This document shows positions 33,801 to 60,585 of a DNA stretch of 64,000 nucleotides, piece after piece. Both the position numbers and the translations under genes were made by a program. Positions within the stretch are counted from its first letter, which is position 1. Every line of letters begins with the position of its first letter. The notes beneath the pieces are model-generated. The model had not been told where the DNA came from. It worked only from the letters and a program-made list of their open reading frames with translations, and ran no database searches. Source of the DNA: Mytilus trossulus (lineage: Eukaryota); contig NC_086375.1 in NCBI RefSeq assembly GCF_036588685.1, positions 63,178,001-63,242,000 of the forward strand. The letters run 5' to 3'.

Positions 33801-35531
33801 TGTGTTGATTATTATGTTCTAAATCCCTTTCTGGTTCTTTGGGTTCAGATATTTTCTCTTGATTAAGGCAAGCAACATAACTTGTACATCTTATAAAGGT
33901 TCTTATCTCAGGGTGAATCCAGACAATTTTAAACATAAGTGGTGGTATTCTCAACCAAGGATAAAAAGGAGAGTTAACTATATGATCCCTGAATTCAAAT
34001 GCATTAATCTTCCATAAAAGAGGAGGTCACCAGAACCCCTGGGATCCACCACTGTGTCTTAAAGCAGGTACAATAAAACAAGCATTGTACATGTACTTCT
34101 GTCCACTGCAAATTCATATTATTTTCATTCAAAAGTATAAATGTTCACAATTTTAAAGACTATATTTCCTTTGTTTCCATATTCAGTTTGCTTTCATGCA
34201 ATGAAAAGTTCAATTCTATTGTTACACAGGTTCTACTGACAACTGATAAACCCCTCTTGTATCCTTCTATCTACCAAAAGGGTGTTTGAGAAAATACAAT
34301 AAGTCCAAGTTCAGAATTTTCTTCTTTGGAAGTGTTCAATAACCTGTAAGTACTTGAAAAAAAATGTCATATTCAACCTTCCCATGACTATTTTAATGTT
34401 ACAACAGTAGAGGAACATGGAATATTGAAAATTTACTGAAGAAATTGTCGAAATATATCTGCAATCATTAATTTTACTCGAATTTACTGTTGTGAACTTG
34501 CAATATCCTACGATGCGCGTACCGAGTTATCTCCCTTTGATCTCCGCTTCGCAACGAATAATCTGACACAATTGCGTATCCGGGGTTTTTGTGATCTGAT
34601 AAAGTACTTTTAGAAGCAAAAAATGGTTTTACTTCATATTTTATACCCCTCAACACGTTACCAAACCTATTTGAGGAATTATAAAGGATTTCCGTGGACC
34701 TACGCAAATTTTCAGAAAAAAAGTTTCACTTCACTCGTGAATTTATAACATTTTTACAACACTTTTTAATGATAATTATATAAAATAAGGAAGCTTATTC
34801 AATCTAGAATTGAACTCTTTGGTTTTTATCAATGTACGAGTACAAATAAGACAATACGAGTTCAAAAACCACGAGGCGTGCACGTTTACCAAAAATCGTA
34901 AACTCTGACCTTTTATCACGTGACCAATGTCTTGACCTTAGAAGCCATTAAATCGTTTGCCGTTCAACTGTCAAATGGTTGCAAACGAAAACTTTGTAAA
35001 TACAGCTGTTTCACAAGCCAAACTGCTCTCAAACACACTATTCATAAGAACTTGGAAATTATCTCAATAGATATAGGAAGATGTAGTATGAGTGCCAATG
35101 AGACAACTCTCCATCCAAATAACAATTTAAAAAGTAAACCATTATAGGTTAAAGTACGGCCTTCAACACGGAGCCTTGGCTCACACCGAACAACAAGCTA
35201 TAAAGGGCCCCAAAATTATTAGTGTAAAACCATTCAAACTGGAAAACCAACGGTCTATATATAAACAAAATTAATACATACTAATCATTTGTATACTTGG
35301 ATATTGAGGTTTAAAAATTTCTATAGTTGTTTATATCCACAGCCTGTGGTCTCTGTGCGGTTGTTGTATCGTTGTCAATCATACAACATTTCGGTGGTTT
35401 TTTATCAATGGCGTTTCATTTTTAAGGATATTTTTTTATCTTTTTTTATGCGAAATGTTTGATTTTTTTGTTTTTATTTATGTACTATTTGATTTTAAAA
35501 TCGGATGTTTTATAATTACTGTTTGATAAAG

Positions 35532-38500
35532 GTAAACGACCAGCACCAAACCCTAGCGTTTATGACTTTCCCGAGGAATACTGGCCATCACCAGACACAG
35601 AACTAGTACCTTCAGACATGAGTGCAAATCAGGTAGTCATTGTTGAACATACGTTAATGCTAGCTTAAAAAAATCTAATTCTTATAATAATTCCTCACTT
35701 AGCAATACATGCATCTACAAGTAAGAGTACGAAGTATTGGACTGCCAATGCGACTATTCGTGAAGCCAATTTTACATTAGTGGTGACAATCGTGTCAATA
35801 GTTCATCGCATAAGCTTGTTATCAGCTAAATAAGATCAATGGAGGTTGAAAAATATCATTGTACTTTGTACTTAAAAAGTTTCTCAAATACATATTCCAA
35901 ATGTTGTTATTTCATTTCATACTTATATCATACATTTATGACTGATAATAAGACTATCTTCAGCTATTGATGGAGTGTAGCAGAGAAAAAAGAAGGAAAA
36001 AAGAAAACCATTCTAATAGCGCCGTAGAACCTAATTCGTAAGCATCTCCTTTATACCCTCTTGTATATACTTGGCATTGTTTACTGATTGATTGAAGTGA
36101 AACAATTCGAAAAAAGAATTTGTGAACAAATATTTTGTAAATGTTTAAGTTTCGCTACATATGATATATAGTATGTGGTCTGATCATTCACTTTAATACC
36201 ATGTTACAGATCACACAAGCTCGAGAAAAACTTTGCATGTTTGATATGAAGAGATGAAACATGCACAATTATTCAATTTCGGCTGCACATTGAAAAAATG
36301 AGATAGTTACAATATAGTTTTCCATAAATTTACAAAAGGGGAATCTTTATCACACAGGGATCGACATATTATAACCAGACATATCCAAACCATGCACACC
36401 ATTCATTAAGAAGGTTAATATTACAAACGTTGTTTCAAATTAAAAAATAAACAGCTGCGCCATGAGCGCATGATACGCCCGATGTCTTATGTGGAAGTTA
36501 TATGCAATAATCATAAATAGTTTCTGAGAAAGTTTTAAGCAATAACCATATATAGTTTTTGAGACACAGCGGGAAACCCCCCCACCCTGGTTTTTTTTTT
36601 TACAAAAAACTCAATATCACTAAAATAAAATTTTGAATCAAAACCAAAAAGTATACAGATCTTTAGATTAATGAGACAAAGAAGTGTGTAAAGTTTTAAG
36701 CAATAATCATAAATTATTTTTGAGATACAGCGTGACATGTAAAAAAAACTCCCTTGTTTAACAAAATACTCAATAACTCAAAAATAAAATTTTGAATCAT
36801 CAGCACAAAGTATACAGATCTTTAGATCGATATAACAAAGAAGTGTGTAAAGTTTTAAGCAATAATCATAAATTGTTATAGAGATACGGCACAACATGTA
36901 AAAAACCCTCCCCCTTTTTAACAAAATACTCGATCACACAAAAATAAAATTTTGAATCATCATCAAAAAGTATACAGATATTAAGATTTATATAACTAAG
37001 AAGTGATTAATATAACAAAGACATGTGTAAAGTTTGTAGCAATAATCATAAATCTATTTTGAGATATGGCGCGACATGTAAAAAAAACCTCCCCCTTTTT
37101 TACAAAATACTCAATAACTCAAAAATGAAATTTTGAATCATCACCAAAAAGTATACAGATATTAAGATTTATATAACTAAGAAGTGTTTAAAGTTTTAAG
37201 CCATAATCAAGAATAGTTTTTGAGATACAGTGCGACATGTGAAATAAACACCCCCTGTTTTAGCTACTAAGTGCCGTAAATCAAAAAGTTTAAATCTAAT
37301 TTTCACCAAAAAGTATACAGATCATTTGACCATCATAAGAAACAATTATATTAAGTTTCATGAAATTTGGATAAGTTGTTCTCAAGTTACGGTGCGACAT
37401 GTTTACGCCGGACAGACGGACGGACAGACGGACGGACACCGGACATGTGTATACCATAATACGTCCCGTCAAAATTTTGACGGGCGTATAAAAATAGCAT
37501 TACAAATGTGTTGGTTATAGCATATATCAAATAATTGAATTGGGTATGACTTAGTTAAAGATCTCCCTGTTCATATTCCTTACATTAAACACCGGTTATA
37601 ATGTAGTTCTGAAAAGCAGTGGTAATTAAGGATTTATTGAGCTGCGAATTAAACACAAACCATCGACTGGTGTTAATTTCTGCGAGGAAAGAAACATCTA
37701 TTATGTAAATGGCATTTATATTTTTTACAGATCGTCTTTAGACCTTTTAAATGCGGTAAGAAGAACTGAACGTTTGCCAATTGTCTCCCTTAAACAGAAT
37801 CTTTCCGTGGTAAAACAAGCACTAAGTTATCCGGATAGTACAATATTTGAACAGAAAATCACAGAGAAGAGAAAGACCTTTGTCAAGGTATTTAACTGTT
37901 GATGTGCGAGTTCTGTCGATCAGATTTCAAACTACTAGTAATTGATGTTTCGATTAAAATCGTCAATTAAACAGTTTTGGTTTTCGTACACAAATTGGGT
38001 TTTACCCCCATAAATCAAAGTTTAAAAGGAATAGGTAAAAAATAAAATATATATTCTGATAATTTAATCTCAATTGAAACCGCTAAATTCTTAGACTTGT
38101 TCCTTTGTTCGTTTCAAACAGTGCTGCTAACGAAGAGTGAAAAAAAACCAAATAGTATTATAATCCACTTCACGTACCGCTATAAAGATGATATCCTGTT
38201 TATACCATTCAACTTGTTCTTATAAAAGCACCACAGATATATGATCATACAGTAGCTCTGCTTCGTATTTCCACTGTTTAAATATGTTTGTATATTTTTT
38301 AGACTTTGAAAGAAGTTTTTGCTGAACGAAATATCGGAGACTCTCCTAATATAGATTGTCCTGAGCAGCTGACTAGGGAGATAGGTAGACGATTGCGACT
38401 TTGCTTAATGGGTCAAAGAACAGTCAAATCCATACCATGTGGCATCGATATAACAATCGATAACCTCAAGTCTAATGTTACTGAAACAAGAACCTCAAAC

Positions 38501-38536
38501 ATTTATCCAGAATCAAGTTCAGAAGTGTGCGTGTAA
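35532..38536 (+). CDS. Last four coding exons of an uncharacterised gene ('gene X'); 5' part unresolved
   Basis: Exons 35532-35632, 35964-36037, 37731-37887 and 38303-38536 have AG/GT ends and chain in frame without stops (GKRPAPNPSVYDFPEEYWP...LLMECSREKRRKKE...SSLDLLNAVRRTERLP...TLKEVFAERN...EVCV*). AATAAA at about 38632. No family recognised. Confidence 0.65.
36450..37493. mobile_element. HINE-like element, family 3 (mirror copy 53756-54799)
   Basis: atacgccc / gggcgtat subterminal inverted motif, ~160-bp tandem units, GGAC microsatellite, terminal palindrome cccgtcaaaattttgacggg. Confidence 0.75.
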
Positions 38537-38996
38537 TAACTTCAATGTACCATGGTTTGGACAAGCGGACCTTAAAATTTGCATTGCCTAAATCTGGTTG
38601 ATCATCATCATCTTTATGCTGTTTTAACTTCAATAAAACATTTAGTCGTTTTTTTCCTATTCTCTTATTTTTGTTTCATTCTGTATAGTTTATTTTGTAT
38701 TTGTTGAACTGTTATTCTGTTATTCTGCTTGAAGATAAAAAAAGAAAATCCGTATTGAAAAAGTAACAAGGACAAAATGGTACATGGTTGTAATTGCCAA
38801 TGAAAGATATACAAACCTATCAACACACCACACTAACACACACAAACCAACAAAATGAAACACAGTCTTAACAAAAGGCAAATATTTAGCTAATCGCCAC
38901 AGTGTCTTAACTAATTGCAAATAAAGAGGTGATAACAACATTTAGCATTTAATATTGGTTCTCCTGGTATAAACCACCCATCAATGTAGAAATAAA

Positions 38997-39117
38997 ACCA
39001 ATACTTGCACCAAATAAACAAGTATAATCAATACTTGTACAAAATATCCAAGTATAATCAATACTTGTACCAAATATCCAAGTATAACCAATACTTGTAC
39101 CAAACATCCAAGTATAT
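38997..39117. repeat. 30-bp minisatellite, 4 copies (mirror 52132-52252)
   Basis: atacttg recurs at 39001, 39031, 39061 and 39091. Confidence 0.9.
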
Positions 39118-41165: not shown

Positions 41166-41570
41166 ATAGCAATGAAGCCCAAATGCTGCGTGTGTAAAAT
41201 ACACATAACTTAAAATGAGGCCATTGTATACAAGTTTCAAAACAACACAAACAATTTTTCGAAACCTTTTTAAACTTTCTAAACTAATTTAAATAAACTA
41301 TTCCCGATGAGAGACTGTCAAAATCAAAGTCTTACAAATAAAAGAACAAACATAAAAGACAAAAGAAGATTTTCAAGAACATTCATTGTATTGTTCTGTA
41401 AACTATATCAACCTTAGATTAGCACAAGATTCGATCAAATAGTGAAAAACAATATGACATTTTGTGTAGTGTATTTGAAGACAGTCTGTATATATATATA
41501 AAAATAAAAAATAGGTATTTGTTTTGTTTTTATGACTTGTAAGCGACCATATGATAATTAAGCCCGTCCT

Positions 41571-44500
41571 TTAACCAATGATCTGCTGTCCTGTAGCCGC
41601 CCTGAAAAAGATACAGAAACATAGATCAACTTAGGTCTAGTATTCGTTTGTTGATGCGGTTCATAAGTGTTTAGGAAAACCCCCAAATGGCTAGTGTAAA
41701 ACCATTCAAACAGGAAAAGCAACTGTAACTTTATAGCTCAAGTTGTTTGGTGTGAGCTTACGTCCGTGTTGAAGGACGTACTTTGACCTAATTTGGTTTT
41801 CTTTTATAAATACGTAAAAACGATGTTTACGATTACATGATATTTTTAAAGATATTTTTTTAATTAAAGCTCTAAAGTTAAAAAAAATATCAAACAAATG
41901 AATTCCAAAACTTACGGTCTAATATCTATCAACTAACTTTAACCCAGTTTACGATGACATGATATTTTTAAAGATAATTTTTTAATTAAAGCAAAATCAA
42001 ACAAATGAATTCCAAAACTTACTGTTTTTCGCAAAGGAAATTTGCCTGGCGATCACACCGTTCGTCGTTCCAGTTATAATTTTCGTGGTGAAGGAGATCC
42101 ATGCAATCTTCTCCGAGGTTTCCACTAGAGTTTGGCTCTCCTGGCCACCAATGAGTGAATTCCTGTTGGTTGATGGACACTCCAGTTTTTACCCACTGCC
42201 ATTCGCCTTCTACTAAAGAATCTGTACCTCCTATCCACACACCATCGGACATACCTTTATGTATTAATAATAAACATAAGTCACATTTTTCTCTCCAAAT
42301 TTCGATTACAACCAGTGATTTTTACAAGTTTATGGACCTGAACTTTTTTTAAAGCTAGAACAAAATAACACAGATTTTTCTTCGAAATAACAGAAGTGCG
42401 TCAAGTTAATCGATTTTGTTGATAGGGTTATCATATAAATAAATCTAAGGATATGAGGGAATTGAGTTGATTCTTTCCCTTCAAATAATAAAGGATCACA
42501 TTCATCACCATGACAAACTTACAGAACACGAAGTGAATAAGATTTTTTCTTCCCATTTCCACCTTGAATATTGAGCATTGTTTGTCACCAAAAAGGGATT
42601 TCGATAGTACTATACAAATCCTTGCGTCGAATGAGTGAAAATAAGAATGTCAACCCTTAGCTGGAGAAATGCAAGAACGGGAAAATGTTTGAAATATCAT
42701 ATAAAATTTCAGTTTTATCGTGATTAAAGCTATAATGATTGATGATTGGTGGTTGTTATTACATGTACATGTATATACTTTTCCTTAAAAAAATGATGTC
42801 GAACATTCACATAAGCAACACGACAGGTGCCACATGTGGAGCAGAATCTGCTTACCCTTCCGGAGCACCTGAGATCACCCCTAGTTTTTGGTGGGGTTCG
42901 TGTTGTTTATTCTTTATGCCCGCGTCACACTGTCCCGATTTTTACGAATTTTCGCGCTAAAATACATTTAAAGTGCCATGCGCGATATGCACTGGTCAGT
43001 CTAATACGACAGTTAAGAAAGACGTTCACAAAACATGGAGCTTACATCATATGATTCTATGCGAACATGAAAGGCGACAGCGTTGTTTCTATTAATTCAA
43101 ATGGAACAAGAAGAGCAGCTATTACAGGCTCAGGATTTACTTTAACAAGTAAAATATTATTTTTTGTCAATTTTTCATATCAAGTAACATAATGAAAATC
43201 ATAAACGCGCCTCGTACTCGTACTGCAGGTACAAGTATATAGGGAAACCAACTTTTTCATTATTCTGATTTTTTATGTATCGTCTGAGTTGTTGTCACAC
43301 GAATGTTTACTCCTTAACCATTTTGTTTTCTATATGTTATATCTTGCCGCATTTGTTGCTTCCCCCACATCCTTCCTTTTGTCTATAGTATTATGATATT
43401 CTCCTGGAAAGGGCTCTTTTGAATAAAAGGGATCAACGAACCCATGACCTTACCTTAAGGAAAGATCAGTAAACATGGGCATGATTATGGGTGATTATTC
43501 AGACTAGTGCACACATTTTTAGCTCGTATGTTCCAATTTTGTATCTCCCTTTCTCTGTGCTATGTGTATCCGATTGCGAACTTTCCACTTCTGTATCTAT
43601 TTTTCTTTTGGTCTTGTACTTTCCTGCTAGACTCATACCCCTCCCTTTTCCTCTTCCTCTCCCTCTCCCTGATTTTGGTGGCATTATATGCAGAGACTCA
43701 GAGTCAAGTTTTACCCTTCAAGCCCAATGTCTTCTATCTTATGATTAAACCAGAAATGAAATGTACAATATAATATATATTCAATATTGATCAAATCAAA
43801 TGCATCGTTAGCTGTACACGACGTCTTTTAGACATCGTATGGCCATCGCGCCATCATTGTAATCCATCCTGTAGCCTTCGTAATCCATCATGTAGCCTTC
43901 GTGATCCATCGTGAAGGCTTCGGCTGAGATATGAAGCTTAAATACCCGTCTTCGGTTAACCTTCGTATGTCCATCTTTTGCTATCGTATATAAATTCGGC
44001 ACCATCGTATAGACTTCGTTATTCATCGTACTTGCTTCGGTCACATTTTGGTATTTTAACGAGATCGGGACCAACTTCGTACGAACTTACAATTTTCGCA
44101 TTCGGGTGTCCATCGTATATAAAAATCGGGACAGTGTGACGCGGGCATTAGTTTTCTATGTTGTGGCATGTGTTTTTCTGTTTTTCTTTTTCATTTTTAG
44201 CCATGGCGTTGTCAGTTTGTTTTAGATTTATGATTTTGACTTTCCCTTTGGTATTTTTCGTCCCTCTTCTAGATGTTCAAAATGTACCAATGAATACCCT
44301 ATAAGAAGAAGATAGATATTCGGAGGGCTTTACCTGACTTGAATTCCCTTCTAAGAAAACCTTCTACAAAGTTCTGTTCTCTTGCTGTTTCAATTATTGC
44401 CAAATCTGAACCAAACACTTGGCAATACATCTGTGATAAAACAACAGATTTATATACACACATATATATCCATCTTACATTTCCGATTTGTCCTTATGTT

Positions 44501-45755
44501 ATCACGTAAATGAGATTTTTGTTTTTCAGTTACTGTCGTGTCCGATATTTTCGGCCAAAAATGAACTTTATGTTGTTCGTTCTTATGTTGCACTGTTATA
44601 CCACTGTCCCACGTTAGGGGGAGGGGGGGACCCCGCTAACTTGTTTAACCCCGCCACATTATTTATGTGTGTGCCTGTCACAAGTCAGGAGCCTGTAATT
44701 CAGTGGTTGTCGTTCGTTTGTTGATGTGTTACATATTTGTTTTTCGTTTACATTTTTTATATAAATAAGGCCGTTAGTTTTCTCGTTTGAATTGTTTTAC
44801 ATTGTCCTATCGGGGCCTTTTATTACTGACTATGCGGTATATGTTTTGCTCATTGCTGAAGGCCGTTGGTGACCTACAGTTGTTTATGTCTGTGTCATTT
44901 TGCTCTGTTGTGGACTGTTTTCTTATTGGCATCAGACCACATCTTCTTTTTTATATTTAAAATAATTCTAAGGAAAAGGTTAATGGATTTTAGAACTATA
45001 AATCATTCATATATATGAAGAATAAGTCTATAGGTACTAAGAAAGGATAACATTTCAAAATTTGTCTCGCGTTCATGGCTGAAACAAATATAGAGAACAT
45101 TAAAACGACCTCTTTTACAAGTGGTGACTAACTTGACAGTTATTTCCAAACAATTTAAACAAAGCGAAAATAAAATATATACAGCAGTTCATATAAATAT
45201 TTAGTATTGGTTAAATAATAAAATAACAAATATATATTATGTATCTTAAAACTTACAAATGCCTCGGCCCATGATGCTTTAGTAGAAGCATACAATTTAT
45301 AGCAGGAATCGTCATGCCTCATATAACCATTAGGACAATCGCAAACAGCTACAACATAACATATACGGCTTATATATTAGATATTTTGTCATACATTTTG
45401 TAATTAAATTAGATTTATTCATTTGTGTTTTCTCGACAAATTTATTTCATCATATTATGAGTTATGTATGTACTGTATTTGTCCATTGAAGAACGCAGCT
45501 TTGGGGTAATTCAATCAATTATAAATCATAGCCGGCATAAAAATGCTTTAACTATACGTATTTACCAAAATATATTTGGTATATGTCATTCAAAGAGTTA
45601 GACGTTAACGATATGACGAAATGTTAACGTTAAGTTTATGACCAAAAAAAACTTTAAAAAAACTCCCAAGCATCCAATATTTTAAAACAAGATAAAACAA
45701 TCTTACCATTCACAACAAACAGTCCAAATATTGCAATCGTGGCAATCAATTTCAT
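41571..45755 (-). CDS. Secreted single-domain C-type lectin (perlucin-like), EPN/WND type, 166 aa ('lectin 1')
   Basis: Exons 45707-45755 (signal peptide MKLIATIAIFGLFVVN), 45257-45348 (CPNGY..DSCY..SWAEA), 44334-44430 (YCQVFGSDLAIIET..EQNF), 42023-42254 (VWIGGTD..GEPN..EDC..WNDERC..FLCE) and 41571-41601 (AATGQQIIG*). All are GT-AG and in phase. Confidence 0.92.
42917..44147. mobile_element. Non-autonomous PIF/Harbinger-type element in intron 3 of lectin 1
   Basis: Perfect 28-bp TIR tgcccgcgtcacactgtcccgattttta. TTA TSD (42914-42916, 44148-44150). Removing it restores the host repeat tattcttta-gttttctatg. Confidence 0.88.
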
Positions 45756-46011
45756 GTTCAATTTAATAATGTGGAAATACAGTAGTCTATACAGTAGATA
45801 ACCCATGACCTTGGACACAGAAACACCAATCTTAAAAGTAAACTGTTCCTGTACTTTGACCAGGAATCGTAACAGACAAAAATAACTGCGTTCTCAAATA
45901 CATTTCACGGCAACTACTACTCGACGTTTAGTAGATATTTCGAGAGATCTTCCCATATTTAGCATTACTATCACGGAACGACAAAAATTGTGATAGTCTG
46001 GAACCTACAAA
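45756..46011. promoter_or_regulatory. Putative bidirectional promoter and 5' UTRs between the divergent lectin start codons (second copy 58093-58348)
   Basis: ATG of lectin 1 (45755, minus) and ATG of lectin 2 exon 1 (46012, plus) are separated by 256 bp. Upstream non-coding exons cannot be excluded. Confidence 0.6.
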
Positions 46012-49000
46012 ATGTTGTGGAAATATTTTTCAGTTTTTCTCACTTTAGCTATTCTCGGATCACCACTAGGTAAGTTAAATTTCTGTACACAAAATATTCG
46101 AAATTACTTATCTGAACTATCGTTTTATGTATGAAACTGAATTTCAATTTATTGACATGTAGTAATCGAATTAAAACTTTGATTTCGTTATAAGACATAC
46201 GAGCTCATATGTACATGACTGTACTTATAACGAAATCAGAGACTCATGTCGATTTATAGACAAATTCACGGTTCAAGGTCTAACTTTTTTTATTGAAAAA
46301 GAAACGTCTTTTAGAATTAGAGTAGATGGTCGTTAACTTGGCCACAATCAATAATAGGGTATCTAGTTTAAAAAAAATGTGTCCGATAACCCCCGCCCTT
46401 GAGTTCGTAATTTTAAGGACATTTTGCAGTTTTTTAAGTTATTATCTTGAATACTACTATAGAAAGAGAGTAAACAGCAATAATGTTCAGCATGATTTCA
46501 TTACGGGTATCTACGGATTATTTTCTACAAATACTTCAACAGGACTAAAATTGTCAATTGACCAAGTAAGGAGTTATTGCCCTTTATAGTCAATGTTTTA
46601 ACAATTTTTCGTAAATTTTTGGAATCATTTACAAAAATCGTCTACTCTGAACTCTACATAGACAGATTCAGACAGTCTTAGCCACAATCATGATTAATTT
46701 AGGGTATATTGTTAAAAAAAAAGAATATGTCGGATGCGGACCACGCCTGCCAACCAACATGGCCGCTACAGCTACCTAGAGGCTCTAAAGAGCCTGTGTC
46801 GCTCACCTTGTTCTATGTGAATATTAAACAAAGGAAGCAGATGGATTCATGACAAAATTGTGTTTTGGTGATGGTGATGTGTTTGTACATTTTACTTTAC
46901 TGAACATTCTTGCTGCTTACAATTATCTCTATCTATGATGAACTTGGCCCAGTAGCTTCTGTGGAAAACGTTACCGGTAGTAAAAATTTACAAATTTTAT
47001 GAAAATTGTTTAAAATTGACTATAAAGGACAATAACTCCTTAGGGGGTCAATTGACCATTTTGGTCATGTTGACTTATTTGTAAATCTTACTTTGCTAAA
47101 CATTATTGCTGTTTACAGTTTATCTCTATCTATAATAATATTCAAGATAATAACCAAAAACAGCAAAATTTCCTTAAAATTACCAATGCAGGGGCAGGAA
47201 CCCAACAACAGGTTCTTTGATTTATTTGAAAATTTCAGGGCAGATAGATCTTGACCTGGTTAACAATTTCACTACCTGTCAGATTTGCTCTAAATGCTTT
47301 GGTTTTTGAGTTATAAGCCAAAAGCTGCATTTCACCCCTATGTTCTTTTTTTAGCCATGGCAGCCATCTTGGTTGATTTGGCGGGTCACGCCACACATTT
47401 TTTAAACTAAATACCCCAATGATAATTGTGGCCAAGTTTGGATTAATTTGGCCCAGCAGTTTCAGAGCAGAAGATTTTTGTAAAAGATATATAAAATTTA
47501 CAAAAAATGGTTAAAAATTGACTTTAAAGGGCAATAACTCCTAAAGGGATCAACTGAAAATTTTGGTCATGTTGACTTATTTGTAAATCTTACTTTGCTG
47601 AACATTATTGCTGTTTACAGTTTATCTCTATCTATAATAACATTCAAGATAATAACCAAAAACAGCAAAATTTCCCTAAAATTACCAATTCAGGGACAGT
47701 AACCCAACAAAGGTTTGTCCGATTCATCTGAAAATTCCAGGGCAGATAGATCTTGACCTGATAATCAATTTTACCCCGTCAGATTTGCTCTAAATGCTTT
47801 GGTTTTTGAGTTATAAGCCAAAAACTGCATTTTACCCCTATGTTCTATTTTTAGCCATGGCGGCCATCTTGGTTGGTTTGGCGGGTCATATCACACATTT
47901 TTTTTAATTTAGATACCCCAATGATGATTGTGGCCAAGTTTGGTTAAATTTGGCCCAGTAGTTTCAGAGGAGAAGATTTTCGTAAAAGCTAACGACGGAC
48001 GACGACGGACGACGGACGCCAAGTGATGAGAAAAGCTCACTTGGCCCTTTTGGCCAGATGAGCTAAACATAGAACAGAGGGGTAAAATGCAAGCTGCGAC
48101 TATCATCTTGAAACTGCTATGAGTAAAAAAAAATCTAACAGGTGCAATAATGTTCAGAATGTTGAGATATACATACTGTCCGTCTCTAAGTCAAAACAGT
48201 CAGATGACTTCTTACAGGAGTTAATGACCTTACTGATCGTCAGATGACCATGACCCATGACCTTGGACACAGAAACACCAATCTTAAAAGTAAACTGTTC
48301 CTGTACTTTGACCAGGAATCGTAACGCGGGCATAAAGAATAAACAACACGAACCCCACCAAAAACTAGGGGTGATCTCAGGTGCTCCGGAAGGGTAAGCA
48401 GATTCTGCTCCACATGTGGCACCTGTCGTGTTGCTTATGTGAATGTTCGACATCATTTTTTTAAGGAAAAGTATATACATGTACATGTAATAACAACCAC
48501 CAATCATCAATCATTATAGCTTTAATCACGATAAAACTGAAATTTTATATGATATTTCAAACATTTTCCCGTTCTTGCATTTCTCCAGCTAAGGGTTGAC
48601 ATTCTTATTTTCACTCATTCGACGCAAGGATTTGTATAGTACTATCGAAATCCCTTTTTGGTGACAAACAATGCTCAATATTCAAGGTGGAAATGGGAAG
48701 AAAAAATCTTATTCACTTCGTGTTCTGTAAGTTTGTCATGGTGATGAATGTGATCCTTTATTATTTGAAGGGAAAGAATCAACTCAATTCCCTCATATCC
48801 TTAGATTTATTTATATGATAACCCTATCAACAAAATCGATTAACTTGACGCACTTCTGTTATTTCGAAGAAAAATCTGTGTTATTTTGTTCTAGCTTTAA
48901 AAAAAGTTCAGGTCCATAAACTTGTAAAAATCACTGGTTGTAATCGAAATTTGGAGAGAAAAATGTGACTTATGTTTATTATTAATACATAAAGGTATGT

Positions 49001-49678
49001 CCGATGGTGTGTGGATAGGAGGTACAGATTCTTTAGTAGAAGGCGAATGGCAGTGGGTAAAAACTGGAGTGTCCATCAACCAACAGGAATTCACTCATTG
49101 GTGGCCAGGAGAGCCAAACTCTAGTGGAAACCTCGGAGAAGATTGCATGGATCTCCTTCACCACGAAAATTATAACTGGAACGACGAACGGTGTGATCGC
49201 CAGGCAAATTTCCTTTGCGAAAAACAGTAAGTTTTGGAATTCATTTGTTTGATTTTGCTTTAATTAAAAAATTATCTTTAAAAATATCATGTCATCGTAA
49301 ACTGGGTTAAAGTTAGTTGATAGATATTAGACCGTAAGTTTTGGAATTCATTTGTTTGATATTTTTTTTAACTTTAGAGCTTTAATTAAAAAAATATCTT
49401 TAAAAATATCATGTAATCGTAAACATCGTTTTTACGTATTTATAAAAGAAAACCAAATTAGGTCAAAGTACGTCCTTCAACACGGACGTAAGCTCACACC
49501 AAACAACTTGAGCTATAAAGTTACAGTTGCTTTTCCTGTTTGAATGGTTTTACACTAGCCATTTGGGGGTTTTCCTAAACACTTATGAACCGCATCAACA
49601 AACGAATACTAGACCTAAGTTGATCTATGTTTCTGTATCTTTTTCAGGGCGGCTACAGGACAGCAGATCATTGGTTAA
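46012..49678 (+). CDS. Predicted chimera A: lectin-2 signal-peptide exon plus lectin-1 exons 4-5, 106 aa
   Basis: 46012-46069 (MLWKYFSVFLTLAILGSPL, phase-1 donor g|gtaagt) joins 48995-49226 (phase-1 acceptor) and 49648-49678 in frame. Expression not shown. Confidence 0.5.
46776..48066. mobile_element. HINE family-1 copy in intron 1 of lectin 2 (duplicate 59113-60403)
   Basis: Same internal repeat, GAC microsatellite and terminal stem-loop as 7244-8633. Confidence 0.75.
48253..48325 (+). repeat. 73-bp templated insertion at the rearrangement junction
   Basis: Exact copy of 45801-45873 (acccatgaccttggacacag...ggaatcgtaac). Confidence 0.93.
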
Positions 49679-52600
49679 AGGACGGGCTTAATTATCATAT
49701 GGTCGCTTACAAGTCATAAAAACAAAACAAATACCTATTTTTTATTTTTATATATATATACAGACTGTCTTCAAATACACTACACAAAATGTCATATTGT
49801 TTTTCACTATTTGATCGAATCTTGTGCTAATCTAAGGTTGATATAGTTTACAGAACAATACAATGAATGTTCTTGAAAATCTTCTTTTGTCTTTTATGTT
49901 TGTTCTTTTATTTGTAAGACTTTGATTTTGACAGTCTCTCATCGGGAATAGTTTATTTAAATTAGTTTAGAAAGTTTAAAAAGGTTTCGAAAAATTGTTT
50001 GTGTTGTTTTGAAACTTGTATACAATGGCCTCATTTTAAGTTATGTGTATTTTACACACGCAGCATTTGGGCTTCATTGCTATTGTAATGTTTATTGGTC
50101 GTTAAGGTTATAATCAAGTAGAATCTTGGTGTATCAATGCATGGTTTATGCTTGAGAAAGAGTTAAACAGATTTAGACGTTTGGCGGGAGAGTCAGTGGT
50201 TGGGTCCATCGGTATGGGGGTTGTTTGGGAGGTACTCTTGTGTTCGGTATCGGGAACATTTAGAGAACACCCCTATCAAGTAAATAGTATAGTCGTCCTG
50301 GGGTATATAAGAGAGTGAGAAACGATACACGGGGCTGTCGGTTGACTGTCGATGAGCTGCCATCCTTCAACTGAGCGTACGTCGGATATAATTAGTGCTA
50401 GAAGAGCCTTGATATTCAGAGGACACTTTGTACTGGGTACAAGGTGGATGTACATGTTGACGGGATTGACATAGCAGACTGTCCCACTCGGAGGACAGGC
50501 TGTATCAGCCCGCTCTGTCTGGTAGTGACAGGTTGTCTCACTCGGAGGACAAGTTGTTCCAGGCCGCACTTTCTGGTAGTGACAGGTTGACCCACTCGGA
50601 GGACAAGTTGTACCAGACCGCTCTGTCTTGTACTGACAAACTGTCCCATTCGGAGGACAAGCTGTACCAGCTATACTATCTCTAAGTGACACATCGTCCC
50701 ATCTTGAGGACAGGCTGGTTTATTGTATTATATTTGTATATATATAATTGTCCGTTGTAACTTTATTTCGACAAAGAGTCAGTGTGTATATTTTAGTTCA
50801 TTGTGCATAATATAGATAGTTGTATTTTTTAGTATTACCATTTTGTTTGTGAACAACTTGGATCCAAGTATTTACTGGAACGGACGTTTGCGATATAAAC
50901 GCCTGGTTATATATATATACACGTTACACTATATAATAAAATTTCGTGTTATTAGTTATGTACAGGCACCTACATCAGTTTGACGGCAGTTGTTCCGTGC
51001 ACATATGTTATAAATGTAAACATTGAATAGAAAGTAAGTCAAGAGTATGGACAGTCATGGGAATGCACACAATAAGAGATACATTATTTTTTCTTTAATA
51101 AAATGATATACTATAAAGTCAAAATAAACCAGAATGACTGTATGAATTGAGCCAACATCCAAAAAATATGATAGAAACATCAAAATTTAATATAACAACA
51201 CAAAAAATGCAATAAGTCTAAGCGAGATTCGAATGTTATCTTCAAAACAGTCTTTGAATAGTAGTTCTATGCTCTATTGATGGAGCCACGCCGACGCTTG
51301 TTATACTGTGTTATTTAGGAGCTATATCAGTACAATTAGTGTTGTTACAATTTTTTTTATTAAAAAGTTTTGTTTTTTTATGTGATAAGGACACACCAAA
51401 CCAATTTCATTTTTGAGGGAAAAAGAAGAATAAATTACAACAGTCACAAAAACATTACTTTTTTTGGTTGGAAATGTCCTTCTGGGTGATTCCCTGTTTT
51501 TTTCCACCTAAAATCACCGTAAATTCCGCACATTGGACTTTCATCCTTTTTGATGGTTTAATTGATCTATTTATCACACATATCATAATACAATGTATAT
51601 GTTAATCGAGATATTGGTCGAAAGCATTTTTATTTTTTGTTTCTAAAAGTAAATTCTATTCTGTCGTCAATTTTTGAAATTGGCCCTACCTCTTTACCAA
51701 TTACAAAATCAATTTTAGAATTATAATTTCATTCGTTTAAATGGGCAGTGCATTAGAGTGAAATTAATTTCTCCTGGGTGTTTCATCATATGTAGCATAG
51801 AGGGCGTAATGTTTTCCCGCTTCAAAATTATTTTCGCGGTATTTTATTGCCTATGTTATCATTCAGCACGACATCGTCAATCTGAGCAGTCGAATTTTCT
51901 TGGTAAAATTTTAATTCTGGTTAAAGTTTATTAAGCTTTTTATTTGGAGAGTTTTTTGTGCCGATACTGATGTTTGAGTTATATATTATATGTGTAGATA
52001 TATATGTATGTATTGAGATTATTTATCATTAAATATAGAGCATCGGCGTTGTCGTGCGACTATCCACTTTACAAAGTCTTTGGTATTTATTATAGCCTTT
52101 TATGGCGTTTATATGCAGAGTGTGTACATATATATACTTGGATGTTTGGTACAAGTATTGGTTATACTTGGATATTTGGTACAAGTATTGATTATACTTG
52201 GATATTTTGTACAAGTATTGATTATACTTGTTTATTTGGTGCAAGTATTGGTTTTATTTCTACATTGATGGGTGGTTTATACCAGGAGAACCAATATTAA
52301 ATGCTAAATGTTGTTATCACCTCTTTATTTGCAATTAGTTAAGACACTGTGGCGATTAGCTAAATATTTGCCTTTTGTTAAGACTGTGTTTCATTTTGTT
52401 GGTTTGTGTGTGTTAGTGTGGTGTGTTGATAGGTTTGTATATCTTTCATTGGCAATTACAACCATGTACCATTTTGTCCTTGTTACTTTTTCAATACGGA
52501 TTTTCTTTTTTTATCTTCAAGCAGAATAACAGAATAACAGTTCAACAAATACAAAATAAACTATACAGAATGAAACAAAAATAAGAGAATAGGAAAAAAA

Positions 52601-55600
52601 CGACTAAATGTTTTATTGAAGTTAAAACAGCATAAAGATGATGATGATCAACCAGATTTAGGCAATGCAAATTTTAAGGTCCGCTTGTCCAAACCATGGT
52701 ACATTGAAGTTATTACACGCACACTTCTGAACTTGATTCTGGATAAATGTTTGAGGTTCTTGTTTCAGTAACATTAGACTTGAGGTTATCGATTGTTATA
52801 TCGATGCCACATGGTATGGATTTGACTGTTCTTTGACCCATTAAGCAAAGTCGCAATCGTCTACCTATCTCCCTAGTCAGCTGCTCAGGACAATCTATAT
52901 TAGGAGAGTCTCCGATATTTCGTTCAGCAAAAACTTCTTTCAAAGTCTAAAAAATATACAAACATATTTAAACAGTGGAAATACGAAGCAGAGCTACTGT
53001 ATGATCATATATCTGTGGTGCTTTTATAAGAACAAGTTGAATGGTATAAACAGGATATCATCTTTATAGCGGTACGTGAAGTGGATTATAATACTATTTG
53101 GTTTTTTTTCACTCTTCGTTAGCAGCACTGTTTGAAACGAACAAAGGAACAAGTCTAAGAATTTAGCGGTTTCAATTGAGATTAAATTATCAGAATATAT
53201 ATTTTATTTTTTACCTATTCCTTTTAAACTTTGATTTATGGGGGTAAAACCCAATTTGTGTACGAAAACCAAAACTGTTTAATTGACGATTTTAATCGAA
53301 ACATCAATTACTAGTAGTTTGAAATCTGATCGACAGAACTCGCACATCAACAGTTAAATACCTTGACAAAGGTCTTTCTCTTCTCTGTGATTTTCTGTTC
53401 AAATATTGTACTATCCGGATAACTTAGTGCTTGTTTTACCACGGAAAGATTCTGTTTAAGGGAGACAATTGGCAAACGTTCAGTTCTTCTTACCGCATTT
53501 AAAAGGTCTAAAGACGATCTGTAAAAAATATAAATGCCATTTACATAATAGATGTTTCTTTCCTCGCAGAAATTAACACCAGTCGATGGTTTGTGTTTAA
53601 TTCGCAGCTCAATAAATCCTTAATTACCACTGCTTTTCAGAACTACATTATAACCGGTGTTTAATGTAAGGAATATGAACAGGGAGATCTTTAACTAAGT
53701 CATACCCAATTCAATTATTTGATATATGCTATAACCAACACATTTGTAATGCTATTTTTATACGCCCGTCAAAATTTTGACGGGACGTATTATGGTATAC
53801 ACATGTCCGGTGTCCGTCCGTCTGTCCGTCCGTCTGTCCGGCGTAAACATGTCGCACCGTAACTTGAGAACAACTTATCCAAATTTCATGAAACTTAATA
53901 TAATTGTTTCTTATGATGGTCAAATGATCTGTATACTTTTTGGTGAAAATTAGATTTAAACTTTTTGATTTACGGCACTTAGTAGCTAAAACAGGGGGTG
54001 TTTATTTCACATGTCGCACTGTATCTCAAAAACTATTCTTGATTATGGCTTAAAACTTTAAACACTTCTTAGTTATATAAATCTTAATATCTGTATACTT
54101 TTTGGTGATGATTCAAAATTTCATTTTTGAGTTATTGAGTATTTTGTAAAAAAGGGGGAGGTTTTTTTTACATGTCGCGCCATATCTCAAAATAGATTTA
54201 TGATTATTGCTACAAACTTTACACATGTCTTTGTTATATTAATCACTTCTTAGTTATATAAATCTTAATATCTGTATACTTTTTGATGATGATTCAAAAT
54301 TTTATTTTTGTGTGATCGAGTATTTTGTTAAAAAGGGGGAGGGTTTTTTACATGTTGTGCCGTATCTCTATAACAATTTATGATTATTGCTTAAAACTTT
54401 ACACACTTCTTTGTTATATCGATCTAAAGATCTGTATACTTTGTGCTGATGATTCAAAATTTTATTTTTGAGTTATTGAGTATTTTGTTAAACAAGGGAG
54501 TTTTTTTTACATGTCACGCTGTATCTCAAAAATAATTTATGATTATTGCTTAAAACTTTACACACTTCTTTGTCTCATTAATCTAAAGATCTGTATACTT
54601 TTTGGTTTTGATTCAAAATTTTATTTTAGTGATATTGAGTTTTTTGTAAAAAAAAAAACCAGGGTGGGGGGGTTTCCCGCTGTGTCTCAAAAACTATATA
54701 TGGTTATTGCTTAAAACTTTCTCAGAAACTATTTATGATTATTGCATATAACTTCCACATAAGACATCGGGCGTATCATGCGCTCATGGCGCAGCTGTTT
54801 ATTTTTTAATTTGAAACAACGTTTGTAATATTAACCTTCTTAATGAATGGTGTGCATGGTTTGGATATGTCTGGTTATAATATGTCGATCCCTGTGTGAT
54901 AAAGATTCCCCTTTTGTAAATTTATGGAAAACTATATTGTAACTATCTCATTTTTTCAATGTGCAGCCGAAATTGAATAATTGTGCATGTTTCATCTCTT
55001 CATATCAAACATGCAAAGTTTTTCTCGAGCTTGTGTGATCTGTAACATGGTATTAAAGTGAATGATCAGACCACATACTATATATCATATGTAGCGAAAC
55101 TTAAACATTTACAAAATATTTGTTCACAAATTCTTTTTTCGAATTGTTTCACTTCAATCAATCAGTAAACAATGCCAAGTATATACAAGAGGGTATAAAG
55201 GAGATGCTTACGAATTAGGTTCTACGGCGCTATTAGAATGGTTTTCTTTTTTCCTTCTTTTTTCTCTGCTACACTCCATCAATAGCTGAAGATAGTCTTA
55301 TTATCAGTCATAAATGTATGATATAAGTATGAAATGAAATAACAACATTTGGAATATGTATTTGAGAAACTTTTTAAGTACAAAGTACAATGATATTTTT
55401 CAACCTCCATTGATCTTATTTAGCTGATAACAAGCTTATGCGATGAACTATTGACACGATTGTCACCACTAATGTAAAATTGGCTTCACGAATAGTCGCA
55501 TTGGCAGTCCAATACTTCGTACTCTTACTTGTAGATGCATGTATTGCTAAGTGAGGAATTATTATAAGAATTAGATTTTTTTAAGCTAGCATTAACGTAT

Positions 55601-56536
55601 GTTCAACAATGACTACCTGATTTGCACTCATGTCTGAAGGTACTAGTTCTGTGTCTGGTGATGGCCAGTATTCCTCGGGAAAGTCATAAACGCTAGGGTT
55701 TGGTGCTGGTCGTTTACCTTTATCAAACAGTAATTATAAAACATCCGATTTTAAAATCAAATAGTACATAAATAAAAACAAAAAAATCAAACATTTCGCA
55801 TAAAAAAAGATAAAAAAATATCCTTAAAAATGAAACGCCATTGATAAAAAACCACCGAAATGTTGTATGATTGACAACGATACAACAACCGCACAGAGAC
55901 CACAGGCTGTGGATATAAACAACTATAGAAATTTTTAAACCTCAATATCCAAGTATACAAATGATTAGTATGTATTAATTTTGTTTATATATAGACCGTT
56001 GGTTTTCCAGTTTGAATGGTTTTACACTAATAATTTTGGGGCCCTTTATAGCTTGTTGTTCGGTGTGAGCCAAGGCTCCGTGTTGAAGGCCGTACTTTAA
56101 CCTATAATGGTTTACTTTTTAAATTGTTATTTGGATGGAGAGTTGTCTCATTGGCACTCATACTACATCTTCCTATATCTATTGAGATAATTTCCAAGTT
56201 CTTATGAATAGTGTGTTTGAGAGCAGTTTGGCTTGTGAAACAGCTGTATTTACAAAGTTTTCGTTTGCAACCATTTGACAGTTGAACGGCAAACGATTTA
56301 ATGGCTTCTAAGGTCAAGACATTGGTCACGTGATAAAAGGTCAGAGTTTACGATTTTTGGTAAACGTGCACGCCTCGTGGTTTTTGAACTCGTATTGTCT
56401 TATTTGTACTCGTACATTGATAAAAACCAAAGAGTTCAATTCTAGATTGAATAAGCTTCCTTATTTTATATAATTATCATTAAAAAGTGTTGTAAAAATG
56501 TTATAAATTCACGAGTGAAGTGAAACTTTTTTTCTG
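48324..56536 (-). repeat. Right arm (inverted A) of the 8,213-bp inverted repeat
   Basis: Reverse complement of 34713-42925. Confidence 0.97.
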
Positions 56537-58092
56537 GCCATGGCGTTGTCAGTTTGTTTTAGATTTATGATTTTGACTTTCCCTTTGGTATTTTTCGTCC
56601 CTCTTCTAGATGTTCAAAATGTACCAATGAATACCCTATAAGAAGAAGATAGATATTCGGAGGGCTTTACCTGACTTGAATTCCCTTCTAAGAAAACCTT
56701 CTACAAAGTTCTGTTCTCTTGCTGTTTCAATTATTGCCAAATCTGAACCAAACACTTGGCAATACATCTGTGATAAAACAACAGATTTATATACACACAT
56801 ATATATCCATCTTACATTTCCGATTTGTCCTTATGTTATCACGTAAATGAGATTTTTGTTTTTCAGTTACTGTCGTGTCCGATATTTTCGGCCAAAAATG
56901 AACTTTATGTTGTTCGTTCTTATGTTGCACTGTTATACCACTGTCCCACGTTAGGGGGAGGGGGGGACCCCGCTAACTTGTTTAACCCCGCCACATTATT
57001 TATGTGTGTGCCTGTCACAAGTCAGGAGCCTGTAATTCAGTGGTTGTCGTTCGTTTGTTGATGTGTTACATATTTGTTTTTCGTTTACATTTTTTATATA
57101 AATAAGGCCGTTAGTTTTCTCGTTTGAATTGTTTTACATTGTCCTATCGGGGCCTTTTATTACTGACTATGCGGTATATGTTTTGCTCATTGCTGAAGGC
57201 CGTTGGTGACCTACAGTTGTTTATGTCTGTGTCATTTTGCTCTGTTGTGGACTGTTTTCTTATTGGCATCAGACCACATCTTCTTTTTTATATTTAAAAT
57301 AATTCTAAGGAAAAGGTTAATGGATTTTAGAACTATAAATCATTCATATATATGAAGAATAAGTCTATAGGTACTAAGAAAGGATAACATTTCAAAATTT
57401 GTCTCGCGTTCATGGCTGAAACAAATATAGAGAACATTAAAACGACCTCTTTTACAAGTGGTGACTAACTTGACAGTTATTTCCAAACAATTTAAACAAA
57501 GCGAAAATAAAATATATACAGCAGTTCATATAAATATTTAGTATTGGTTAAATAATAAAATAACAAATATATATTATGTATCTTAAAACTTACAAATGCC
57601 TCGGCCCATGATGCTTTAGTAGAAGCATACAATTTATAGCAGGAATCGTCATGCCTCATATAACCATTAGGACAATCGCAAACAGCTACAACATAACATA
57701 TACGGCTTATATATTAGATATTTTGTCATACATTTTGTAATTAAATTAGATTTATTCATTTGTGTTTTCTCGACAAATTTATTTCATCATATTATGAGTT
57801 ATGTATGTACTGTATTTGTCCATTGAAGAACGCAGCTTTGGGGTAATTCAATCAATTATAAATCATAGCCGGCATAAAAATGCTTTAACTATACGTATTT
57901 ACCAAAATATATTTGGTATATGTCATTCAAAGAGTTAGACGTTAACGATATGACGAAATGTTAACGTTAAGTTTATGACCAAAAAAAACTTTAAAAAAAC
58001 TCCCAAGCATCCAATATTTTAAAACAAGATAAAACAATCTTACCATTCACAACAAACAGTCCAAATATTGCAATCGTGGCAATCAATTTCAT
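52713..58092 (-). CDS. Predicted chimera B: lectin-1 exons 1-3 plus the last four exons of gene X, 267 aa
   Basis: Exons 58044-58092, 57594-57685 and 56671-56767 (phase-1 donor), then 55617-55717 (phase-1 acceptor), 55212-55285, 53362-53518 and 52713-52946: 804 nt, open frame. Depends on the gene X model. Expression not shown. Confidence 0.45.
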
Positions 58093-60585
58093 GTTCAATT
58101 TAATAATGTGGAAATACAGTAGTCTATACAGTAGATAACCCATGACCTTGGACACAGAAACACCAATCTTAAAAGTAAACTGTTCCTGTACTTTGACCAG
58201 GAATCGTAACAGACAAAAATAACTGCGTTCTCAAATACATTTCACGGCAACTACTACTCGACGTTTAGTAGATATTTCGAGAGATCTTCCCATATTTAGC
58301 ATTACTATCACGGAACGACAAAAATTGTGATAGTCTGGAACCTACAAAATGTTGTGGAAATATTTTTCAGTTTTTCTCACTTTAGCTATTCTCGGATCAC
58401 CACTAGGTAAGTTAAATTTCTGTACACAAAATATTCGAAATTACTTATCTGAACTATCGTTTTATGTATGAAACTGAATTTCAATTTATTGACATGTAGT
58501 AATCGAATTAAAACTTTGATTTCGTTATAAGACATACGAGCTCATATGTACATGACTGTACTTATAACGAAATCAGAGACTCATGTCGATTTATAGACAA
58601 ATTCACGGTTCAAGGTCTAACTTTTTTTATTGAAAAAGAAACGTCTTTTAGAATTAGAGTAGATGGTCGTTAACTTGGCCACAATCAATAATAGGGTATC
58701 TAGTTTAAAAAAAATGTGTCCGATAACCCCCGCCCTTGAGTTCGTAATTTTAAGGACATTTTGCAGTTTTTTAAGTTATTATCTTGAATACTACTATAGA
58801 AAGAGAGTAAACAGCAATAATGTTCAGCATGATTTCATTACGGGTATCTACGGATTATTTTCTACAAATACTTCAACAGGACTAAAATTGTCAATTGACC
58901 AAGTAAGGAGTTATTGCCCTTTATAGTCAATGTTTTAACAATTTTTCGTAAATTTTTGGAATCATTTACAAAAATCGTCTACTCTGAACTCTACATAGAC
59001 AGATTCAGACAGTCTTAGCCACAATCATGATTAATTTAGGGTATATTGTTAAAAAAAAAGAATATGTCGGATGCGGACCACGCCTGCCAACCAACATGGC
59101 CGCTACAGCTACCTAGAGGCTCTAAAGAGCCTGTGTCGCTCACCTTGTTCTATGTGAATATTAAACAAAGGAAGCAGATGGATTCATGACAAAATTGTGT
59201 TTTGGTGATGGTGATGTGTTTGTACATTTTACTTTACTGAACATTCTTGCTGCTTACAATTATCTCTATCTATGATGAACTTGGCCCAGTAGCTTCTGTG
59301 GAAAACGTTACCGGTAGTAAAAATTTACAAATTTTATGAAAATTGTTTAAAATTGACTATAAAGGACAATAACTCCTTAGGGGGTCAATTGACCATTTTG
59401 GTCATGTTGACTTATTTGTAAATCTTACTTTGCTAAACATTATTGCTGTTTACAGTTTATCTCTATCTATAATAATATTCAAGATAATAACCAAAAACAG
59501 CAAAATTTCCTTAAAATTACCAATGCAGGGGCAGGAACCCAACAACAGGTTCTTTGATTTATTTGAAAATTTCAGGGCAGATAGATCTTGACCTGGTTAA
59601 CAATTTCACTACCTGTCAGATTTGCTCTAAATGCTTTGGTTTTTGAGTTATAAGCCAAAAGCTGCATTTCACCCCTATGTTCTTTTTTTAGCCATGGCAG
59701 CCATCTTGGTTGATTTGGCGGGTCACGCCACACATTTTTTAAACTAAATACCCCAATGATAATTGTGGCCAAGTTTGGATTAATTTGGCCCAGCAGTTTC
59801 AGAGCAGAAGATTTTTGTAAAAGATATATAAAATTTACAAAAAATGGTTAAAAATTGACTTTAAAGGGCAATAACTCCTAAAGGGATCAACTGAAAATTT
59901 TGGTCATGTTGACTTATTTGTAAATCTTACTTTGCTGAACATTATTGCTGTTTACAGTTTATCTCTATCTATAATAACATTCAAGATAATAACCAAAAAC
60001 AGCAAAATTTCCCTAAAATTACCAATTCAGGGACAGTAACCCAACAAAGGTTTGTCCGATTCATCTGAAAATTCCAGGGCAGATAGATCTTGACCTGATA
60101 ATCAATTTTACCCCGTCAGATTTGCTCTAAATGCTTTGGTTTTTGAGTTATAAGCCAAAAACTGCATTTTACCCCTATGTTCTATTTTTAGCCATGGCGG
60201 CCATCTTGGTTGGTTTGGCGGGTCATATCACACATTTTTTTTAATTTAGATACCCCAATGATGATTGTGGCCAAGTTTGGTTAAATTTGGCCCAGTAGTT
60301 TCAGAGGAGAAGATTTTCGTAAAAGCTAACGACGGACGACGACGGACGACGGACGCCAAGTGATGAGAAAAGCTCACTTGGCCCTTTTGGCCAGATGAGC
60401 TAAACATAGAACAGAGGGGTAAAATGCAAGCTGCGACTATCATCTTGAAACTGCTATGAGTAAAAAAAAATCTAACAGGTGCAATAATGTTCAGAATGTT
60501 GAGATATACATACTGTCCGTCTCTAAGTCAAAACAGTCAGATGACTTCTTACAGGAGTTAATGACCTTACTGATCGTCAGATGAC
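56537..60585 (+). repeat. Second copy (C) of the 4,049-bp direct repeat
   Basis: Matches 44200-48248 and continues into unique sequence containing the rest of lectin 2. Confidence 0.97.

Follow-up and report, generated by a model that had tools for sequence, protein, structure and literature searches.

A probable young complex duplication in Mytilus trossulus that joins the 5' exons of a C-type lectin gene in frame to a lineage-restricted gene

In a 64,000-nucleotide stretch of Mytilus trossulus contig NC_086375.1 (the window, in whose positions all coordinates are given), the first three exons of a duplicated C-type lectin gene, lectin 1, stand upstream of four exons of a second gene, gene X, on the same strand. 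Our preferred reading, to which we assign a probability of roughly 0.58, is that a real and very young complex duplication joined intron 3 of the lectin to intron 1 of gene X, giving an in-frame fusion of 267 residues that is likely inert. The copied lectin promoter would drive a seven-exon transcript whose product is predicted to enter the endoplasmic reticulum (ER) and would be unable to form a sugar-binding lectin domain. Taken together, we regard this chimera as a young, probably rare and probably non-functional fusion of a known kind.

The locus was mapped by self-comparison, which revealed two near-perfect duplications, one inverted (8.2 kb) and one direct (4.05 kb), and a segment order of A, B, T and C, followed by a short insert, B' (inverted B), C' (a second C) and D. 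The two duplicated segments are:

48324..56536, minus strand: B', inverted copy of native 34713-42925 (self-comparison)
56537..60585, plus strand: C', direct copy of native 44200-48248, running on into the downstream lectin 2

Two duplicated segments, one of them inverted, therefore surround a single-copy one, a pattern that fits the duplication–normal–inverted duplication class (DUP-NML-INV/DUP) as outlined in PMC9851044. No difference separates copy from native sequence over 12,262 internal bases, which bounds divergence at about 0.024%, and the three mismatches of the raw alignments all lie at the edges. Because differences of about 1% are found in three contigs of another animal (DNA run X2, below) and heterozygosity in M. 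galloprovincialis is given as 1.73% in PMC7653742, the event is likely very young. All three parent genes keep an intact copy, and annotated M. trossulus proteins match the genes of the window. A run of 841 N at 17075-17915 lies about 17 kb from the duplication and has no contact with it.

The predicted chimera comprises the following features:

58044..58092, minus strand: exon 1, lectin-1 exon 1 with the predicted signal peptide, ending in phase 1 (matches P0027 and P0030)
57594..57685, minus strand: exon 2, lectin-1 exon 2
56671..56767, minus strand: exon 3, lectin-1 exon 3, ending in phase 1
55718..56670, minus strand: hybrid intron of 953 nt, GT-AG, holding junction J2
55617..55717, minus strand: exon 4, gene X exon 2 (native 35532-35632), with a phase-1 acceptor
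55212..55285, minus strand: exon 5, gene X exon 3 (native 35964-36037), carrying a basic cluster
53362..53518, minus strand: exon 6, gene X exon 4 (native 37731-37887)
52713..52946, minus strand: exon 7, gene X exon 5 with the stop codon (native 38303-38536)

The original prediction, made from this DNA alone, held that the second lectin copy had lost exons 4 and 5 and that the next same-strand exon, some 0.95 kb away at 55717, followed in matching phase. This geometry was borne out. The three lectin exons have GT-AG ends and total 238 nt, so that the lectin part ends in phase 1, and the hybrid intron, composed of 134 nt of lectin intron 3 and 819 nt of gene X intron 1, is flanked by phase 1 on both sides. 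Joining the exons by coordinates yields the anticipated 267 codons without an internal stop, of which 79 come from the lectin, one is a glycine formed at the junction and 187 come from gene X. Residues 1-79 are those of the intact lectin P0027 from its second methionine, residues 81-267 are native gene X residues 51-237, and splicing to gene X exon 3, 4 or 5 instead would bring a stop at 82-86 residues. The phase match had a chance of about one in three and is no sign of selection. The first AATAAA after the stop lies at 52617; open frame, poly(A) signal and the region with presumed promoter function are thus all kept. Two elements of the earlier description need revision: the chimera had been presented as half of an EPN lectin, whereas EPN and WND both lie in the lost exon 4, and its other part as a gene X C-terminus, whereas it holds 187 of the 237 gene X residues.

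Both junctions carry small-scale signatures of repair, and the segment between the duplicated ones is itself a recognizable element:

48249..48325, plus strand: junction J1, slippage of four bases plus a 73-bp insert templated by 45801-45873
42917..44147, no strand: single-copy middle segment T, which nearly coincides with a 1231-bp element that has a TTA target duplication and, at its ends, inverted repeats of 28 bp without mismatch

At J1, the 73-bp templated insert is followed by a 2-bp microhomology that leads into B. At J2 (56536/56537), inside the hybrid intron, native 34713 is joined to native 44200 with an 8-bp match and then a 19-bp skip. The slipped repeat, the templated insert and the 2-bp and 8-bp matches are of the kind associated with DUP-NML-INV/DUP rearrangements; templated inserts with slippage are typical of repair-born junctions, and both junctions look cell-made. 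The perfect 28-bp repeats of segment T, with TTA on both sides, are as expected for a PIF/Harbinger-type element, and from its 3-bp TTA/TAA target site it is a putative non-autonomous member of that superfamily. Loose ends at 42916 and a joint 42904-44148 in DNA runs X1 and X2 fit empty sites of this element. Of the breakpoints, one lies within the element, 9 bp from its left end, and one lies beyond it, 53 bp past the right end; clean transposition is unlikely because the cuts do not lie at its tips. Fork stalling or breakage at the inverted repeats is a possible trigger, after which replication template switching or polymerase-theta-type joining may have completed the rearrangement. By our reasoning, three segment orders are compatible with the same junctions and J2 is present in all of them; the same ambiguity of segment order is described in PMC11610597.

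As a separate observation at the other junction, the lectin-2 signal exon (46012-46069) and lectin-1 exons 4 and 5 (48995-49226, 49648-49680) form a reciprocal in-frame product of 106 residues with the EPN site, for which RefSeq has only an 86-residue model of exons 4-5 (P0023).

Both parents of the fusion are real genes, as in duplication-born chimeras, lectin 1 being spliced in RNA and gene X being conserved and covered by RNA. Sequencing evidence comes from four of the 24 runs listed (18 non-RNA, 6 RNA), namely DNA runs X1 and X2 and RNA runs X19 and X20, the last bearing the label of a related species other than M. trossulus; joints refer to the 15 of 1913 that were listed, DNA and RNA together. 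The features of the lectin parent are:

41571..45755, minus strand: native lectin 1, five exons, 166 residues from the second methionine, intact (RefSeq P0027; spliced joints in RNA runs X19 and X20)
58093..58348, no strand: second copy of the 256 bp that separate the lectin 1 and lectin 2 start codons, a likely shared promoter or overlap of 5' ends

Lectin 1, identical to RefSeq XP_063425845.1 of M. trossulus from the second methionine, has exons at 45707-45755, 45257-45348, 44334-44430, 42023-42254 and 41571-41601 on the minus strand and spans C, T and B; a repeat-like frame at 40567-40779 was rejected as its exon 5, the annotated exon being 41571-41601. The second C holds exons 1-3 only, and the second copy of exons 4 and 5 lies on the plus strand (48995-49226 and from 49648). 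Native joints 45348-45707 and 44430-45257 are present in both RNA runs, as is splicing of the exon-3 donor to exon 4 (depth 49 and 368). The lectin matches its M. californianus counterpart at 144 of 166 residues, and exon 4 in the X20 RNA contig differs from the window at 3 of 228 positions. Lectin 1 and lectin 2 are arranged head-to-head with 256 bp between their start codons, and RNA contig 26 of X20 crosses the native gap up to the lectin-2 exon-1 donor at 46069, a pattern that suggests overlapping 5' ends and a shared promoter (window 45756-46069, copy 58093-58406). The gap is copied whole in the second C and is continuous with native upstream DNA, which, together with the hydropathy of exon 1, supports the proposal that gene X sequence had captured a signal peptide and a lectin promoter. 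Further along lectin 2, a tandem array of about 51 bp at 62345-62862 is built from the end of its exon 4 and the donor, with several spare donor copies.

The second parent has the following native location:

30942..38536, plus strand: native gene X, five exons, 237 residues, intact; exon 1 (30942-31089) lies outside the duplication

That the gene X exons are genuine, as the original prediction assumed, is supported by RefSeq P0016 (159 residues), which uses the same four exons under two accessions that presumably represent the two gene X copies of the window, and by P0033 of M. californianus (uncharacterized protein LOC127698581, 237 residues), which matches all five exons. P0033 is identical to native gene X at 198 of 237 residues, a conservation close to the lectin's 144/166, and at 23 of 25 residues in exon 3, the exon of the basic cluster. 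The M. coruscus models P0017 and P0018 start with an extra exon mapping to 30942-31089, the accession of P0017 adjoins a lectin accession on a 34-kb M. coruscus contig, and the relatives also include a more distant fragment, P0021. The last exon drew seven protein matches among 1.84 billion representatives, three of which (P0019, P0020 and P0022), long proteins of repetitive sequence, were set aside as spurious. No longer relative appeared among the 8000 candidates scored, which is weak evidence; no Pfam family reached its cut-off for gene X pieces or relatives, and no usable ESM Atlas match was returned for P0016 or P0033. Gene X had been called an orphan, a description that does not hold, since M. 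californianus has a full-length counterpart and M. coruscus two that are predicted; judged by these homologues it is a real gene that is lineage-restricted rather than orphan.

RNA cover of gene X agrees with its exon structure in part. One 780-nt contig of X20 (contig 25, depth 35.8) covers 38301-38615, has the same depth at 31015 and 31020, and fits in length the sum of the five exons (779 nt). Bin depths of X20 over exons 2, 4 and 5 were 6.87, 10.1 and 20.6 against 6.56, 10.2 and 20.5 expected, exon 1 fitting less well (10.2 against 8.7). Run X19 is almost without gene X cover (bins 0.09-0.31) and carries no information either way. The request for RNA confirmation of these exons is thus answered at the level of contig cover, and gene X splice joints are absent from the joints listed. 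The X20 contig differs from the window at 28 of 315 bases and P0018 carries frame shifts, both of which speak against strong constraint, and constraint at the DNA level may be weaker on gene X than on the lectin. A non-coding interpretation built on these two observations was rejected, as P0033 keeps the full 237-codon frame. An AlphaFold model of P0033 from a seven-row alignment (mean predicted local distance difference test, pLDDT, 48; predicted template modelling score 0.24) shows, at low confidence, a few helices among unstructured stretches, and a Foldseek comparison of this model with the PDB gave 0 of 161 matches at E<=0.001, which is uninformative at that confidence. The idea that gene X might encode a death domain or a prohormone was supported by no search, and candidate exons at 33426-33510 and 34230-34345 have no open, conserved frame. 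A second gene X allele in DNA run X1 (31015, 31020 and 38344) shares letters with the X20 RNA contig and may stem from introgression, a paralogue or a divergent haplotype. An 850-codon open frame at 26719-29268 (minus strand), a short way upstream of native gene X, gave no Pfam family at cut-off and is, on impression, probably a transposon gene.

In a carrier, we judge a spliced fusion mRNA to be the default expectation, held with good though not full assurance, because the transcript would use the lectin's own donor and gene X's own acceptor, retains the promoter region, and has its stop in the last exon and an AATAAA. Use of the gene X exon-2 acceptor follows from Logan proteins P0034 and P0035 (contigs <1 kb), in which exon 1 is joined to exon 2 over a 4.4-kb intron (sequence inspected for P0034); P0033 and P0017 use the same acceptor, which also resembles that of lectin exon 4. 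In X20 the lectin contig is about tenfold deeper than the gene X contig, a comparison of contig depths that cannot rank the genes. Several observations weigh against this expectation. The junction joint that the original prediction proposed to look for is absent from the joints listed in X19 and X20, neither a known carrier, and the transcript check thus recovered the normal lectin joints and no fusion joint. RefSeq models the lectin copy as a 107-residue intron read-through (P0030) and gene X as a separate 159-residue gene. Our crude acceptor filter passes only two of the eight real acceptors printed and misses that of gene X exon 2, so it is weak on cryptic sites.

These points give some room to the strongest competing explanation, namely that the rearrangement is real and the second lectin copy is a truncated pseudogene, which is silent, is spliced at a cryptic site or is read on into intron 3 as far as a stop, leaving the gene X copy in B' unjoined; we consider this unlikely, if well ahead of the other alternatives. 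P0030 is exactly such a read-through, its stop lying about 30 nt into the hybrid intron (90 residues from the second methionine). The hybrid intron contains no AATAAA and one ATTAAA (56302), and a single AG passes the acceptor filter, a candidate cryptic acceptor at 55823 that would bring a stop after 29 codons. However, both of these signals are inherited from the gene X intron, in sequence that gene X normally splices out, and the competing sites are the normal lectin donor, spliced in both RNA runs, and the normal gene X acceptor. In addition, both RefSeq gene X accessions lack exon 1, which points to thin RNA support for the models themselves. The missing fusion joint would be expected under this explanation as well.

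We consider the rearrangement very probably real, on the evidence of its junctions and of X1, a run that holds 0.83 of window words among the 24 runs listed. Six listed X1 contigs inside B or C are identical to the window at depth 46.5-53.6, about twice the depth of a single allele: the other allele's contigs lie at 16-22, and subtracting 20.7 from 49.3 gives about 29 for the window allele in sequence outside the duplication. Total depth is 49.3 outside the duplication at 31015 (other allele 20.7) and 66 inside it at 38344 (other allele 16.2), which corresponds to about three copies against two, with the caveat of the tool that summed contig depth is not equal to copy number and cannot rank genes. 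Moreover, the last base of record 8 of X1 is 45830, precisely the position where the templated insert of J1, if present, forces a branch in a 31-mer graph. In contrast to this depth step, X2 is flat, with eight listed pieces at depth 4.9-10.6 inside and outside the duplication; three of its contigs differ from the window by about 1% (11/1049, 9/959 and 10/720), and two of the eight pieces, including one that spans B's left border, show about 13% difference and may derive from another haplotype or copy. Of the 18 non-RNA runs listed, these two thus show a depth step in one and none in the other. The chimera allele is probably rare and at low population frequency.

An assembly artefact, in which B and C were doubled by a graph error or a chimeric long read and the locus exists in no animal, appears improbable to us. 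It would account for copies identical over 12,262 bases and for the flat depth of X2, and other Mytilus annotations returned show one intact lectin each. Several features of the data leave it some ground: the fusion junction is not among the joints listed for DNA; J2 lies in a high-copy repeat, without a read-level view here; a single contig pair (31015/31020) supplies the X1 depth beyond the duplication; and record 8 would end at the same base if position 45831 were heterozygous. X1 may come from the assembled animal, and would then bear on an artefact but not on frequency. The doubled depth of window-identical X1 contigs, the contig break at the predicted base and the templated insert with slippage argue against it. 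A retained second haplotype, moreover, would be expected to differ by about 1-2%, in line with the M. galloprovincialis heterozygosity (PMC7653742).

Fold and fate of the fusion protein were argued from its parts. Hydropathy, used in place of a dedicated signal-peptide predictor, peaks at 2.19 over residues 3-21 with no later hydrophobic stretch above 0.93, consistent with a signal peptide. EPN and WND, the calcium and sugar motifs of C-type lectins, lie at residues 119 and 141 of the 166-residue lectin, and the break falls at residue 80. The chimera accordingly lacks WIG, EPN, WND and three of the seven lectin cysteines (Cys130, Cys146 and Cys154); Cys50 is kept, and its last-strand partner, with which we take the helix-1 cysteine of the C-type lectin fold to form the core disulfide, is lost. 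Half a C-type lectin domain in which a core cysteine lacks its partner does not fold and does not bind sugar. Searched as pieces, the exon-3 frame scored 16.4 bits for Lectin_C, under the cut-off of 22.6, and the exon-2 frame had no match, whereas the lost exon 4 alone reached 44.1 bits; by these domain tests the fusion is not a C-type lectin. The gene X part adds four N-glycosylation sequons. The fusion protein would thus enter the ER and is likely degraded or inert there. The basic cluster of gene X exon 3, which the original prediction singled out for its resemblance to a nuclear localization signal, would lie in the ER lumen behind the signal peptide, would not meet the nuclear import machinery and is presumably irrelevant. 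Since none of the three parent genes is left without an intact copy, the allele may be close to neutral.

More ambitious interpretations fare poorly. It is very improbable that one transposon-triggered event made two expressed, in-frame, functional secreted proteins, the lectin–gene X fusion and the 106-residue half-lectin with EPN, under duplicated copies of one bidirectional promoter, with parents intact and the alleles segregating; if this were so, new immune-type genes would have been born functional in a mussel and would still be segregating. Least probable of all, by a small step, is that the fusion is itself a functional new gene, a stable secreted protein exporting gene X helices under lectin control and favoured by selection. 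Its open frame with the stop in the last exon (nonsense-mediated decay is not expected), signal peptide, sequons and poly(A) signal would permit such a product, intact parents mean no loss of function, and 24 of 76 duplication-born chimeras reported for Drosophila yakuba in PMC5460883 changed expression; nevertheless, the copies have not diverged, leaving selection no time to show, one other animal (X2) has no sign of the duplication, a core cysteine of the half lectin domain is left without its partner, the model of gene X has low confidence and is for the most part unstructured (mean pLDDT 48), and the same report places chimeras at lower frequency than whole-gene duplicates.

Elsewhere in the window, a 685-codon single-frame gene for a BTB-BACK protein lies at 20780-22834 (plus strand), and long frames of another gene occur at 9458-10630 (minus strand, 391 codons, no Pfam match) and 6271-6729 (minus strand, 153 codons).

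Events of this class are well known in humans and flies. Human DUP-NML-DUP and DUP-NML-INV/DUP rearrangements create fusion genes, among them a putative DMD-IL1RAPL1 and an expressed SUPT16H-CHD8 (PMC11610597; PMC9851044), and one of the putative fusions tested by polymerase chain reaction in PMC11610597 was expressed. As in these cases, two duplicated segments, one inverted, flank a single-copy one in the mussel, an intronic junction joins 5' and 3' exons in frame, and the fusion rests on one junction that survives alternative segment orders. Unlike them, the mussel locus is of 4-8 kb rather than tens to hundreds of kb, all three parents are intact, a second in-frame product arises at the other junction, and the fusion is here predicted from the assembled DNA. 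Segregating chimeric genes from tandem duplication, which tend to be rarer than whole-gene duplicates, are described in D. yakuba (PMC5460883); the mussel chimera likewise comes from a young, likely polymorphic duplication that ignores gene borders and gives a 3' part a new promoter, whereas the event is inverted and complex rather than simply tandem and adds a signal peptide. Among perlucin-like single-domain C-type lectins of Mytilus (P0001, P0024-P0028; Pfam PF00059), which count codakine 2vuv among their solved relatives, M. trossulus P0027, counted from its second methionine, shares with the chimera its first 79 residues, and the chimera departs from the group in lacking the second half of the domain. 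Relative to LOC127698581 (P0033) and its relatives P0016-P0018, the chimera shares gene X residues 51-237 and carries the lectin part in place of the first 49.

By title or abstract opening, no paper on this locus was found in the open literature searched. Nothing suggests a useful protein. Three odd RefSeq models, the lectin halves of 86 and 107 residues and the duplicated 159-residue protein, are explained as pieces of one rearrangement. If the fusion is transcribed, the locus would capture exon shuffling in a bivalve as it arises, resolved to single bases, with known parents and intact controls on the same chromosome, and would show a way in which structural variation in mussels could give rise to new secreted proteins.

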